A stretch of DNA of 31,539 nucleotides from a virus. The position numbers were made by a program, and so were the translations under genes. How positions within the stretch are numbered: the stretch's first letter is position 1; every line of letters begins with the position of its first letter. Shown piece after piece: positions 6,433-25,808 of this stretch. Location of the stretch: the IMG/VR virus record IMGVR_UViG_3300028025_000020. One strand, given 5' to 3'. The notes under the pieces are model-generated. The model ran no database searches. It saw only the letters and a program-made list of their open reading frames with translations, and was not told the origin of the DNA.

Positions 6433-6458
6433 AAAAAAGGGATGACCTAAGCCACCCC
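6433..6458 (-). terminator. Rho-independent terminator after the capsid gene block
   Basis: Minus-strand RNA GGGGUGGC-UUAG-GUCAUCCC (8 bp including 2 G.U pairs) followed by UUUUUU. The G.U pairs become A.C mismatches on the plus strand, so the hairpin is strand-specific. Confidence 0.6.
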
Positions 6459-15013: not shown

Positions 15014-15020
15014 TTTGATG

Positions 15021-15054
15021 AAAAAACCCCCATACTTGGTTAAAAATATGAGGG
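15021..15054 (-). terminator. Rho-independent terminator T2
   Basis: Minus-strand RNA CCCUCAUA-(12-nt loop)-UAUGGGGG (8 bp including one G.U) followed by UUUUUU. Confidence 0.6.
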
Positions 15055-15075
15055 TCAAAGCACGATTGAAAGAAC
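15021..15075 (-). ncRNA. Candidate ~55-nt promoter-proximal transcript, unit 2 (from the E4 box to T2)
   Basis: The box TATATTTG (15080-15087) lies within a 14-nt string GTGTATATTTGTAT that is identical to the E2 promoter. It is followed by ATTGTTCTT...TTTGAC and terminator T2, with no ORF. Confidence 0.3.
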
Positions 15076-15103
15076 AATACAAATATACACTAATTTATGA
15101 CAT

Positions 15104-15129
15104 AAAAAAACCCCACAACTTGTGTAGGG
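15104..15129 (-). terminator. Rho-independent terminator T1
   Basis: Minus-strand RNA CCCUACA-CAAGU-UGUGGGG (7 bp including one G.U) followed by UUUUUUU. Confidence 0.6.
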
Positions 15130-15162
15130 CTAAAAGTCAAAACTTTTGTATTTTAGAAGAAC
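15104..15162 (-). ncRNA. Candidate ~58-nt promoter-proximal transcript, unit 1 (from the E3 promoter to T1)
   Basis: CTTGCATATT...-N20-TAGGTTTG (15167-15198) resembles early promoter E1. It is followed by ATTGTTCTT...TTTGAC and terminator T1, with no ORF. It is paralogous to unit 2, offset by ~87 nt. Confidence 0.3.
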
Positions 15163-20586: not shown

Positions 20587-20801
20587 TTGTTAGTTGTTGT
20601 TGAAGTGTGTTCACTTTGTTGTTCAAATATATCAGTTCTTTGTTCTCCTGAAATTTCCTTGCTTTGTAGCCCATTGTTATCAGTAGGCAAACAAAAATGA
20701 TTTTTAATAAATTCATAATCTTTCGTTATTTGGTGTTTAATTGTATTATCAATGTCGTGGTATTTCATAAGACGAAAATAAAATGCTTGAAGTTTATTCA
20801 T
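20583..20801 (-). CDS. Hypothetical protein
   Basis: ORF track, 72 aa. Coupled to the sigma gene and the membrane protein gene. Confidence 0.5.
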   Translation of the reverse strand: MNKLQAFYFRLMKYHDIDNTIKHQITKDYEFIKNHFCLPTDNNGLQSKEISGEQRTDIFEQQSEHTSTTTNK

Positions 20802-21294
20802 ATTCGTTTATGATTTGTCTTTTTATGTCTTTGATTACCCTTAGTACTTCACGTAATGTTATTTTGGTTTTACGATGGATTGACCTTGCCGATTCACCAT
20901 TCGACCACATTGTAAAGATTTCCCGTTCGTACCATTTGTTTTTGCTTACTACGTTTTCAATCAGTTTATATTTGTTTTCCTTTTCGATGGCATCGTCTAT
21001 TGTGTTTAAATATTCTATCTGTACATTTTCAATATCAAATAGTCCTATCGGCTTCATAACGTCGTAGAACTTTTGACGTGGTGTTGAACTTTGCGACCAC
21101 ATTATTTTAATGCAAAACAATTTAATATAACCATCGTTGTAAACCTTTATTAATTTGTCATCTGGCATTTCACATAAAATAAGTAAAAGATGTTGAGCTA
21201 AATCGTCGTGGAATAAGGGCGATATTGTTTTTGACGCCTTATAAAGCCATTCTGATTTTGCAACTTCTATCAGTATATTATTTTTGATGTGCAA
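20794..21294 (-). CDS. ECF-like sigma factor (regions 2 and 4)
   Basis: ORF track, 166 aa. The start codon read at 21294-21292 is TTG. Region 2-like HDDLAQHLLLIL...YIKLFCIKIMWSQ. Region 4 HTH-like YEREIFTMWSNGESARSIHRKTKITLREVLRVIKDIKRQI. Confidence 0.6.
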   Translation of the reverse strand: MHIKNNILIEVAKSEWLYKASKTISPLFHDDLAQHLLLILCEMPDDKLIKVYNDGYIKLFCIKIMWSQSSTPRQKFYDVMKPIGLFDIENVQIEYLNTIDDAIEKENKYKLIENVVSKNKWYEREIFTMWSNGESARSIHRKTKITLREVLRVIKDIKRQIINEYE

Positions 21295-24262: not shown

Positions 24263-24911
24263 CGTTTAATGTTCCAAATTTAGGTTTGTTTGTTATTTGT
24301 TGTGTTTGTTTATTGTAATCTTTTGCAATCCAATTCTTTACTGTTGCTTTCCAATCTTTCATTTTGTTTCTTCCTACCATCCAGCCATTGCTTTCGTAGT
24401 AGTTATAAAAGTGTTCAGCGTTAAAAGTTGGAAATTCATTTTTAATATCTTGAATATTTGGTTTAATAAATCTTTTATTTTCTTCTTTTTGTTCTTCTTC
24501 TTCTTCTCTTTCTTTTATTGGTGTCGTTTGATGTTCGTTAGCGTTTCGTTTGCGTTTCGTTTGCGTTTCATTTGCGTTTCGCTCACCTTGATAAGTCTCA
24601 TACTTACAAACAGTTAAGCGTGTCGTTATGTTATCGCTTTCTATTACAATCATAGAATCACTTTGTAACGCATTCATAAAACGTCTAACCTTTGATTTAT
24701 CCCAATTCCAACGCTTACCCCAACTTTCAAGTGACAGTATGCTTTGACCTCTTTTAATCTCATATAGTTTACCCTTAATCATTAATTTTGCATCTGAATA
24801 GTTAACCATTAAAAGAATATCATTCCAGGCTTCAAACTTACTAAATGTGCGTTTTTCAGTATAAAGCCAATGGTCAACTATTGACCTATGAATTTTAATC
24901 CATCCACACAT
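24255..24911 (-). CDS. Replisome organizer/replication initiator-like protein
   Basis: ORF track, 218 aa. N-terminal WIKIHRSIVDHW...RGQSILSLESWGKRWNWDKSKVRRFMNAL wHTH-type domain, a charged linker, and C-terminal FYNYYESNGWMVGRNKMKDWKATVKNW. Sits directly upstream of dnaB. Confidence 0.6.
   Translation of the reverse strand: MCGWIKIHRSIVDHWLYTEKRTFSKFEAWNDILLMVNYSDAKLMIKGKLYEIKRGQSILSLESWGKRWNWDKSKVRRFMNALQSDSMIVIESDNITTRLTVCKYETYQGERNANETQTKRKRNANEHQTTPIKEREEEEEQKEENKRFIKPNIQDIKNEFPTFNAEHFYNYYESNGWMVGRNKMKDWKATVKNWIAKDYNKQTQQITNKPKFGTLNDD
24541..24584. repeat. Four tandem 11-bp direct repeats (putative origin iterons) inside the organizer gene
   Basis: Read directly: gcgtttcgttt gcgtttcgttt gcgtttcattt gcgtttcgctc. 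A degenerate fifth unit precedes them (gatgttcgtta, 24530-24540). They adjoin a homopurine/AT-rich tract at 24470-24520. Confidence 0.6.
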
Positions 24912-24913
24912 AA

Positions 24914-25399
24914 TTATAACCCATTATTTTTTAAATCATAATTACTTTCAAGTTTAAAATTTATACCATCAATTTTAAAATCATAAGTATAAAAATCAAT
25001 TTGTCCACATCCTTGAACATTTAATAAATCAGTAATAAAACAAAAACTACCTTGTGTATCTAATTCTTTACCAATCAATTTAATATTGATATCAAATAAA
25101 TGTGATACATTTTTATTTTCTAAATAATTAATGACTCCTTTAACATAATTAAGAGATTGTAAAAACGAAGAAATACCAATTTTTTCTTTTTTTAATTCAA
25201 TAATAGTTACTTGTCCAGGGAAGAATAATTTTTTATCCTTATAATATGGGCGTGTGTAAGAAATTAAATCAGCAATCCCATAATTACCAATTTTTACTTG
25301 TCTCAAAAGTTTACCTTCAATTGATAAACCTCGTTTGTCTAATAAATCCATTCCAGATTCATAGATGATTGTTTCCAAATCTTTTTCTAAAAATTTCAT
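24914..25399 (-). CDS. PD-(D/E)XK nuclease-fold protein (NucS-like core)
   Basis: ORF-track frame, but the track start at 25420 is TTG inside a terminator stem. I place the start at ATG 25399 (MKFLEKDLETIIYE...). Core YGIADLISY...VTIIELKKEKI...SFLQSLNYVKG fits D...E.K plus the Q..Y motif. Confidence 0.55.
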   Translation of the reverse strand: MKFLEKDLETIIYESGMDLLDKRGLSIEGKLLRQVKIGNYGIADLISYTRPYYKDKKLFFPGQVTIIELKKEKIGISSFLQSLNYVKGVINYLENKNVSHLFDINIKLIGKELDTQGSFCFITDLLNVQGCGQIDFYTYDFKIDGINFKLESNYDLKNNGL

Positions 25400-25403
25400 A
25401 AAT

Positions 25404-25456
25404 AAAAAAAGCCCAACCAAAATAGTGCAGTTCAGGTGCGACTATTTTAATTGAGC
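25404..25456 (-). terminator. Strong Rho-independent terminator T3, 4 nt upstream of the nuclease gene ATG
   Basis: Minus-strand RNA GCUCAAUUAAAAUAGUCGCA-CCUGAAC-UGCACUAUUUUGGUUGGGC (~19 bp with one bulge and G.U pairs) followed by UUUUUUU, then AUUU AUG. Confidence 0.65.
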
Positions 25457-25500
25457 CAATATCTTTTAAGTTTTGGAATCCTGAACATTCCACTTAACAA

Positions 25501-25511
25501 ATACAAATATA
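25501..25511 (-). promoter_or_regulatory. Host-type -7 box E5 (TATATTTGTAT)
   Basis: The 11-mer TATATTTGTAT (TAnnTTTG type) also occurs at E2 and E4. Here it is intergenic, just after the stop at 25518. No clear -33 TTTG. Confidence 0.4.
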
Positions 25512-25517
25512 TATTAT

Positions 25518-25808
25518 TTATTTTGTATAACCTAATTCTTTTAAAACTTCTTCTTCTTTTGCGTGACGTTGGTTGTAAACGTTACCACGAAGATTTGGGT
25601 AGTCTTGTTGTACTTTTTGTCGTGAACGTCTGATTGATTCAGGTGAAGTCACCATTCGACCAGCGATAGCGTTTAAAACATCGTAGACAGATTTTGCACC
25701 AAGTTCTGCTAATTCTTGTCTCCAAATATCAGCCATTAACAAAGCGTCATCGTCACGCATTTTAGTACTATTTTCTAAGCGTTGTTTGACTTCTTTTATA
25801 ATAAGCAT
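25518..25808 (-). CDS. Hypothetical protein
   Basis: ORF track, 96 aa. The pattern ...MRDDDALLMADIW...SIRRSRQKVQQDYPNLRG recurs in phage early regions as far as I recall. Function unknown. Confidence 0.6.
   Translation of the reverse strand: MLIIKEVKQRLENSTKMRDDDALLMADIWRQELAELGAKSVYDVLNAIAGRMVTSPESIRRSRQKVQQDYPNLRGNVYNQRHAKEEEVLKELGYTK

Follow-up and report, generated by a model that had tools for sequence, protein, structure and literature searches.

A conserved leader RNA with a covarying loop–loop contact to a putative terminator at the entrance to the replication genes of Bacteroidota phages

Results

The viral record IMGVR_UViG_3300028025_000020 of IMG/VR was analysed as a single stretch of 31,539 nucleotides, referred to below as the window, in which all long open reading frames (ORFs) lie on the minus strand. 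Read in that direction, genes for an amidase, an Erf-like annealing protein and a YqaJ/RecE-like exonuclease precede the element described here, which is followed by a replication module in the order 161-amino-acid protein, DnaD-like helicase loader, DnaB, ATPase–GNAT fusion and DnaA C-terminal-domain protein, and farther downstream by an HNH endonuclease, the large terminase, a tape-measure protein and the portal. Among the gene labels given in an earlier, sequence-only reading of this DNA, matches in Pfam and PHROGs uphold the DnaD-like loader, DnaB, the ATPase–GNAT fusion and the DnaA C-terminal domain, while the gene that it had called ‘sigma’ matched neither a Pfam nor a PHROG family. The loader gene contains 11-bp iterons at 24524–24581. 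Neither an integrase nor a repressor was found among the ORFs scanned, a set that took in only part of the small ones, and the phages carrying the element look lytic. A scan for tRNA and tmRNA genes returned none, and the 3 kb around the site had no megablast match among GenBank phages.

The first gene of the module (25399–24914, minus strand) encodes the 161-amino-acid protein. Three of its residues, D44, E68 and K70, do not vary among 24 homologues and make up a PD-(D/E)xK-like D...E-x-K motif. Its earlier label of ‘nuclease’ has as its only basis this invariant motif and a relative annotated as DUF1016: Pfam gave only a sub-threshold match to DUF5851 and none to a toxin family, a profile search of the PDB gave no match, and a single-sequence AlphaFold model was unusable (pLDDT 39). 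Cultured relatives of the protein occur in Cellulophaga phage Nekkels_1/2 and Bacteroides phage BF1-TP2, and its genome matches fall in Bacteroidia, Maribacter, Ignavibacteria and Cytophagia contigs. These relatives therefore point to a host within the Bacteroidota, in agreement with the promoter type.

The coordinates of all parts of the element were read on the minus strand. The upstream ORF, of 96 amino acids, ends with its stop codon at 25520–25518 and is followed by the −7 promoter box TATATTTG of the Bacteroidota TAnnTTTG type (25511–25504), with a weak −33-like TTAG (25535–25532) 20 nt upstream of the box. Hairpin P1 (25497–25466), present in both the minimum-free-energy and the centroid folds, has a lower stem of 6 bp (UUAAGU/ACUUAA), a 3-nt bulge (AAA) and an upper stem of 5 bp (GGAAU/AUUCC), and carries the loop L1, GUUCAGG (25486–25480). 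An A/U-rich, single-stranded linker of 8 nt (25465–25458) leads to hairpin P2 (25457–25411), the terminator stem, which consists of 16–17 bp, a bulged C and a 3-bp upper stem (about 20 bp in total) and whose loop L2, CCUGAAC (25436–25430), is the exact complement of L1 over all 7 nt. A U7 tract (25410–25404) follows P2 with no gap, and AUUU then separates it from the ATG at 25399–25397, which puts the start codon of the first replication gene 4 nt past the U-tract. The leader RNA measures about 95 nt, 96 nt having been folded as a unit. A host-type promoter thus stands directly before two hairpins, of which the second, together with the U-tract, is built like a strong intrinsic terminator. The −7 box, leader, hairpin, U7 tract and 4-nt spacing to the ATG had all been pointed out before and are each borne out by the minus-strand reading, and the small GGAAU...AUUCC hairpin in which the leader loop had been placed is the upper stem of P1.

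The −7 box alone is weak evidence for a promoter, since bare TAnnTTTG occurs in the window at chance density (60 matches against 56 expected), and the promoter call therefore rests on conservation. The box TATATTTG is of the form used at −7 by the primary sigma factor of the Bacteroidota, and 32 of the 34 homologous RNAs carry a TAnnTTTG box. In 29 of them the box precedes the model start by 0–5 nt, in three more it lies 14–17 nt upstream, and the two homologues without it are L007 and L017. At the −33 position, where an element is expected 19–21 nt upstream, TTAG in the window shares three of the four bases of TTTG, and about half of the homologues have TTG 19–22 nt upstream of their −7 box. 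Because TAnnTTTG occurs at chance density, internal promoters for the downstream genes may also exist. The same TATATTTGTATTGTT recurs in the window at 15087–15073. A candidate antisense promoter, TATCTTTT, on the strand opposite the linker, was set aside: it is present in the window and, on inspection of the alignment, absent from the second linker type.

The folding energies that had been suggested as a check on the hairpin support it. For the 96-nt RNA the folding energy is −29.6 kcal/mol (z = −4.5), a value reached by 0 of 200 shuffles, and for the 121-nt region it is −33.1 kcal/mol (z = −4.7), again with no shuffle folding as well; P2 alone accounts for −20.3 to −21.9 kcal/mol. A standard terminator scan misses P2 because of its bulge, and a custom scan for a hairpin plus U-tract recovers it (−20.3 kcal/mol); no other such structure on the coding strand of the window comes close to it in strength. 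P2 and U7 together present a stable stem-loop followed by a U-tract on the transcribed strand, and this canonical hairpin-plus-U anatomy suggests that P2 would function as a terminator in Bacteroidota.

The exact complementarity of the two loops had earlier been taken to allow alternative pairing, and it is on this point that the folding analysis departs from the sequence-only reading. L1:L2 complementarity stops exactly at the loop edges, where the flanking positions are U·U and A·A, and forcing L1:L2 as a nested helix yields −12.2 kcal/mol against −29.6 kcal/mol for P1 plus P2, a cost of 17 kcal/mol. The complementarity being confined to the loops and its nested form being this costly, the element is therefore not a terminator/antiterminator switch; comparison of the forced L1:L2 fold with P1 plus P2 gave no mutually exclusive antiterminator fold, and no conserved antiterminator was found. 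L1:L2 is instead a loop–loop (kissing) contact that is compatible with both hairpins. As a duplex it is worth about −8.9 kcal/mol, and the fold of a 75-nt prefix, in which the 3′ arm of P2 has not yet been made, already favours L1:L2 pairing, so the contact can form before that arm exists.

To place the element among its relatives, 54 IMG/VR loci were fetched via the downstream protein (35–89% identity) and the 160 nt upstream of each were compared. Nearly all of them carry the −7 box, P1, P2 with its U-tract and the ATG in the same order, a layout seen in IMG/VR phages, in Bacteroidota metagenome-assembled genomes and in Cellulophaga phage Nekkels_1. In all, related Bacteroidota phages provided about 65 distinct sequences of the element, with about 38 distinct kissing-loop sequences. 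The loop pairs differ by phage, for example GUCGGAU/AUCCGAC, GUGAGAG/CUCUCAC, GUAGCCG/CGGCUAC and GGUCUCAC/GUGAGACC. The P2 apical loop was scored by its longest Watson–Crick match within its own upstream region, which spans 6–8 nt in 45 of the 47 distinct regions; non-cognate combinations of loop and upstream region gave a median of 4 nt. Two complementary 7-nt loops would be expected by chance at a rate of about 4^−7, and chance is excluded because essentially every homologue again has complementary loops, with sequences that differ from one to the next. A search of the loops for YUNR U-turn motifs found them inconsistent across members.

The same conclusion follows from two alignments. The kissing helix is 97.5% paired in a 17-sequence MAFFT alignment, with both-side changes in six of its seven pairs, and 94.5% paired, with both-side changes in all seven, in a 35-sequence model-based alignment that was fitted to P1 and P2 with the kissing pairs absent from the model. 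The observed covariation was reached by 0 of 500 shuffles, and sliding the partner by one column lowered the kissing covariation score from 0.66 to 0.15 or less. In the 35 sequences the stems covary as well, both-side changes being present in 4/4 lower-stem and 5/5 upper-stem pairs of P1, in 17/19 pairs of P2 and in 33/35 pairs of the whole structure. G·U pairs far outnumber A·C combinations in the stems (139 against 13), so the structure is that of an RNA on the sense strand and not of duplex DNA. These comparative patterns show that the element is a conserved structured RNA, that selection acts on its structure as RNA read from the coding strand and preserves a genuine complementarity of the loops, and that the loop–loop helix (7 bp; 8 bp in a second subfamily) is maintained by compensatory evolution.

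A covariance model built from P1 and P2 only, with the kissing pairs left out, finds exactly one copy per locus (in the window at 25404–25499). It also matches 18 non-seed loci that were fetched via the upstream 96-amino-acid protein. A U-tract is present in all model matches, and the loops are complementary in all of the distinct new sequences inspected (14 loci), which include the pairs AUUGCAG/CUGCAAT, GUCAGAU/AUCUGAC, GUCGCAG/CUGCGAC and GUAGGAU/AUCCUAC. In a metagenome pattern scan, only 2 of the 80 loci returned were true motifs.

Across these genomes the element always stands directly before the replication module, and what varies is the first gene: it may be the D...E-x-K protein, an ORF of 65–69 amino acids or one of at least five types of initiator or loader with mosaic N-terminal domains, followed by DnaB. 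The start codon lies 0–4 nt past the U-tract in 32 of 34 group-A loci, often reading UUUUUUUAUG. The element travels with the replication module and not with the upstream gene. The homologous loci thus support the part of the earlier interpretation that saw an RNA element, with its own promoter and an abutting terminator, standing before the replication genes, and they show it to be conserved.

Discussion

We propose that the promoter-driven leader RNA of about 95 nt constitutes a promoter-proximal terminator gate into the replication module, a reading that we believe about as readily as we doubt it. Because the terminator abuts the start codon, polymerase coming from this promoter or from farther upstream must read through P2, and it was indeed by read-through of this terminator that the replication genes had been supposed to be reached. 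Host RNA polymerase starting here, or arriving from the upstream recombination genes, would mostly terminate at P2 and release a compact RNA of about 95 nt, and the nuclease-like gene, the helicase loader, DnaB and the later genes would be made only from the read-through fraction, which would also drive transcription toward the iterons in the loader gene. The kiss would form once L2 emerges and would lock P1 and P2 into one rigid, closed fold; this fold could fix the efficiency of the terminator, offer a platform for a factor that changes it, or both. Any regulation of read-through would need a factor acting in trans (a protein, a modified polymerase or the terminated RNA itself), because no alternative antiterminator fold exists. 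If read-through is regulated, the element may time the expression of the middle genes, as had been suggested. No candidate antiterminator protein, and no Q-like protein, was identified. The kissing pair itself may serve as a lock on the fold, or as a self-recognition code in trans.

The geometry of the contact bears on this choice. By our own estimate, with fully paired 7-nt loops and a linker of 8–9 nt, a straight coaxial stack of about 106 Å cannot close within one molecule, and an intramolecular kiss would need hinges of about 90° at the bulges adjoining both kissing stems; the bulges next to both stems are conserved. A symmetric dimer is the alternative, and by the same estimate it would fit easily. 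The terminated RNA may recognize its own kind in trans, its loops kissing their counterparts in nascent or read-through transcripts of its own or a co-infecting genome, which we regard as unlikely on the whole. Such RNAs might pair hand in hand as dimers and alter the termination or translation of the replication genes, and the variable loops may then act as a specificity code, like those of plasmid incompatibility or of the RNA immunity of P1/P7 and P4.

Recognition in trans finds support in the pattern of variation among close relatives, a set of 19 distinct sequences sharing the scaffold that came from an IMG/VR pattern scan. Their loops L1 and L2 are the most variable parts (mean pairwise difference 0.385 per site), ahead of P2 (0.30) and P1 (0.19), and the 31 unpaired columns as a class, linker included, are the least variable (0.155); L1 and L2 are nevertheless Watson–Crick complementary at 7/7 positions in 19/19 of them. 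Pairs of near-identical scaffolds differ by two loop changes and two compensations, as in GUAAGAG/GUAGAAG and GUCAGAU/GUAGGAU. Among 11 near-identical sequences of one scaffold type, the variable L1/L2 sites form only two haplotypes while the sites between L1 and L2 show all four combinations with the L1 allele; the two loops were thus never uncoupled, although the sites between them are reshuffled, so that mismatched loops either do not arise or are not tolerated. To this may be added the about 38 loop sequences, the co-occurrence of different loop types in a single metagenome (3300042868), and the precedents of IsrK and the P4 CI RNA (PMC4825925).

A purely structural kiss leaves unexplained why the loops are the most variable and the unpaired positions the most conserved, and a trans-acting RNA fits this at least as well. 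Against recognition in trans, the variability of the P2 stems comes close to that of the loops, so that with a modest excess and a small sample the faster evolution of the loops is no more than suggestive; the hinge-like bulges in both hairpins could allow the contact to form within one molecule; the loops of a folded monomer would already be occupied; and the lack of an integrase or repressor in the scanned ORFs leaves no obvious setting for classical immunity. That the loops constitute a self/non-self code, by which an abundant terminated RNA would set how much polymerase enters the replication operon, giving lytic Bacteroidota phages an RNA-only control of copy number or superinfection exclusion that diversifies like plasmid incompatibility groups, is an idea that we would advance only tentatively, as an improbable one.

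An independent small RNA gene, for which P2 would simply be the terminator, the linker a seed for mRNAs of host or phage or else a protein-binding site, and the position before the replication module a matter of genome compaction, strikes us as rather improbable. It would account for a consensus promoter and a strong terminator of its own, for the compact and stable fold, and for the combination of covarying stems with unpaired positions, linker included, that are the most conserved, as is typical of small RNA seeds. It would not account for a U-tract that is always 0–4 nt from the first start codon, whatever the gene, which leaves no room for a separate promoter and so ties downstream expression to the element in any event, nor for the presence of two distinct linker types on near-identical scaffolds. 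Sites complementary to the loops are not enriched elsewhere in the phage genomes (0.90 against 0.64 per 10 kb), and nor are own-loop 7-mers in 17 contigs of at least 8 kb; in the window, none of the four other GUUCAGG/CCUGAAC 7-mers is displayed in a hairpin loop.

We attach very little credence to an element acting as DNA, whether with L1 and L2 as inverted half-sites for an initiator at an origin or for another DNA-binding protein, or with the region extruding a cruciform. The element does adjoin the replication module and its inverted repeats do vary between phages, but the excess of G·U over A·C is a strand asymmetry unlike duplex DNA, and the half-sites lie at the apices of stems that covary, in an element bounded by a promoter and a U-tract. 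Nor does loop sequence follow the type of initiator: L068 and L072 share their first protein but not their loops, and GUAAGAG loops go with three different first genes (L017, L059 and L086). The iterons at 24524–24581 are the better origin candidate; the cumulative GC skew, being monotonic, is uninformative on the origin.

Equally remote is a ligand-sensing riboswitch, or another known class of cis-regulatory RNA, in control of the terminator. The layout of promoter, structured leader, terminator and gene, and the long-range tertiary contact, would suit one. Yet the element is without a universally conserved unpaired core, its linker and loops change between subfamilies, and it offers no competing fold as an expression platform. 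A search of Rfam 15 with the window and 20 diverse loci gave no match at gathering thresholds, to riboswitches, C4/IsrK-type RNAs, Flavo-1 or any other class, and at E values of up to 10 the region had only chance-level matches. That P2 is the ordinary terminator of the upstream early operon, with a coincidental loop complementarity, would fit its place directly past a stop codon in a genome transcribed one way, but is refuted, unless the alignments are wrong, by the conservation of P1, promoter and kiss with compensatory change in about 65 distinct sequences and by an RNA that travels with the replication module and not with the upstream gene.

Returning to a terminator gate as the favoured reading, its parts can be compared with several known systems. 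In phage lambda, PR′–tR′ (6S RNA) and Q combine a constitutive promoter, a close terminator and read-through-dependent genes, with the short RNA as the default product; the lambda 6S RNA differs in having no conserved tertiary structure, where the present element has a kissing contact. The put RNA of HK022 is likewise a structured two-hairpin RNA just past a promoter, one that has no U-tract and suppresses terminators. In ColE1, with RNAI/RNAII, and in other plasmid antisense controls, complementary 7-nt hairpin loops gate replication and loop changes create new specificities. The plasmid partners are transcribed from opposite strands, whereas here a single sense RNA carries both loops, and a conserved antisense promoter was not seen at the element.

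The c4 RNA of P1/P7 follows the same logic as the CI RNA of P4, with premature termination upstream of antirepressor genes in P1. In P4, CI is a short untranslated RNA from the 5′ part of an operon that is complementary to the same transcript and causes premature termination upstream of the replication genes (PMC4825925). Like these RNAs, the element is a self-complementary operon-leader RNA, placed before the replication genes, and its loops differ between relatives through matched changes, as specificity does in those systems. Those systems belong to temperate lysogens of enterobacteria and involve RNA processing and extended antisense pairing, whereas the partners here are two apical loops, one of them that of a built-in terminator, in lytic-looking phages of Bacteroidota; the one-strand gene layout and the lack of an integrase or repressor among the scanned ORFs do not suggest a temperate element. 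IsrK of the Salmonella Gifsy-1 prophage has one promoter, from which both a short, terminated RNA and a read-through mRNA arise, and the short form can pair with the long (PMC4825925). IsrK, however, remodels alternative structures to activate translation, and the element here has no alternative fold.

Two complementary loops that covary without sequence conservation are also known from the phi29 pRNA, whose pairing is intermolecular, ‘hand in hand’. The likeness lies in covarying, complementary loops within one RNA. The pRNA, by contrast, pairs over 4 nt, binds the portal of protein-primed phages and has no role in termination, and although a large terminase and a portal are encoded in the window, the element is tied to the replication module and not to packaging. 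A type III toxin–antitoxin system of the ToxI/ToxN kind was also considered and rejected: 25400–25517 contains no tandem repeat, the downstream gene varies and no toxin family was matched in Pfam. In architecture, then, the element resembles lambda PR′–tR′ and in logic the P4/P1 immunity systems or plasmid kissing-loop control, and it is a member of none of them. What is new is a leader/terminator RNA with a covarying kiss from the leader hairpin to the terminator apex, for which there is no precedent in Rfam 15 or in the literature that we searched, where no description of an equivalent element came to light.

The hosts concerned lack Hfq and mostly do without Shine–Dalgarno-led initiation, and to our knowledge gene regulation in Bacteroidota phages is almost unexplored and few regulatory RNAs are known in their hosts. 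Against this background, a widespread motif that is absent from Rfam 15, shows unusually clear covariation and sits where the replication decision is made provides a compact, testable model of a tertiary contact tuning intrinsic termination. Should the loops turn out to act in trans, competition between phages whose compatibility is decided by RNA could be modelled on it as well. Experiments are feasible, since Cellulophaga phage Nekkels_1, which is in culture together with its host, has a version of the element. This version falls in the second subfamily, group B, whose members are set apart by a larger P1 loop, an internal loop in P2 and a kiss of 8 bp. A pairing of GGAAUGU, conserved before the ATG in group B, with ACAUU in the P1 loop was considered and dropped, the alignment on inspection showing no covariation; group B members share a conserved block of 14 nt before the ATG.

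Variation of the kissing-loop terminator RNA among homologues

The single-stranded linker that joins the first hairpin (P1) of the roughly 95-nt kissing-loop terminator RNA to its terminator hairpin (P2), at 25458-25465 in the window and at the homologous positions of related loci, occurs in two distinct versions, AAAAGAUAUUU and UAACCACUUUU, each internally conserved and found on near-identical scaffolds. Two homologues (L007 and L017) lack the -7 box upstream of the RNA and carry in its place a strong GC-rich hairpin with a U-run directly 5′ of P1, an arrangement suggesting that the RNA in these two phages may need read-through or a non-consensus promoter.

In group B, the second subfamily of the RNA, a block AAAUACGGAAUGU constitutes the 14 nt directly 5′ of the ATG of the D...E-x-K protein, the first product of the replication module (L023-L054), and is kept among these phages although their D...E-x-K proteins are only about 45% identical. 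The motif GGAAUGU of this block also serves, in group A, the subfamily represented in the window, as the 5′ side of P1. The cultured Cellulophaga phage Nekkels_1, a group B member, carries its version of the element at 3850-3985 of L091, where the terminator hairpin is branched into two sub-hairpins. Their loops complement two separate upstream stretches, one by UUGGAA/UUCCAA and the other by GUCUAAC/GUUAGAC, and the two resulting kissing pairs are nested.

Replication genes and a candidate origin

Downstream of the RNA in seven loci (L059, L062, L064, L068, L071, L081 and L086) lies a mosaic initiator/helicase loader, in which one of two common C-terminal regions is fused to any of at least five N-terminal domains that are unrelated to one another, and the next gene is always DnaB. 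In the window, the DnaD-like initiator/helicase-loader gene contains, some 830 nt 3′ of the RNA, a tandem array of the 11-bp repeat TTCGTTTGCGT (24524-24581; 4.4 copies, 91% match), a candidate iteron-type replication origin. The minus-strand ORF at 20794-21294, labelled a sigma factor in the sequence-only reading, had no Pfam or PHROG match, which leaves that label tentative.

Other promoter and terminator units in the window

A second promoter-to-terminator unit occupies 15015-15140 on the minus strand. It comprises a terminator, GCCCUACAC...GUGGGG plus U7 (~15129-15103), followed by TATATTTGTATTGTT (15087-15073), the same promoter as that of the RNA, and by a further hairpin with U6 (15054-15027; -12.3 kcal/mol) that precedes a 379-aa gene. 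The loops in this unit showed no complementarity to each other. Elsewhere on the minus strand, the intergenic GC-rich hairpin GGGGUGGCUUAGGUCAUCCC with U6 (6439-6458) is likely to be a terminator between structural genes.
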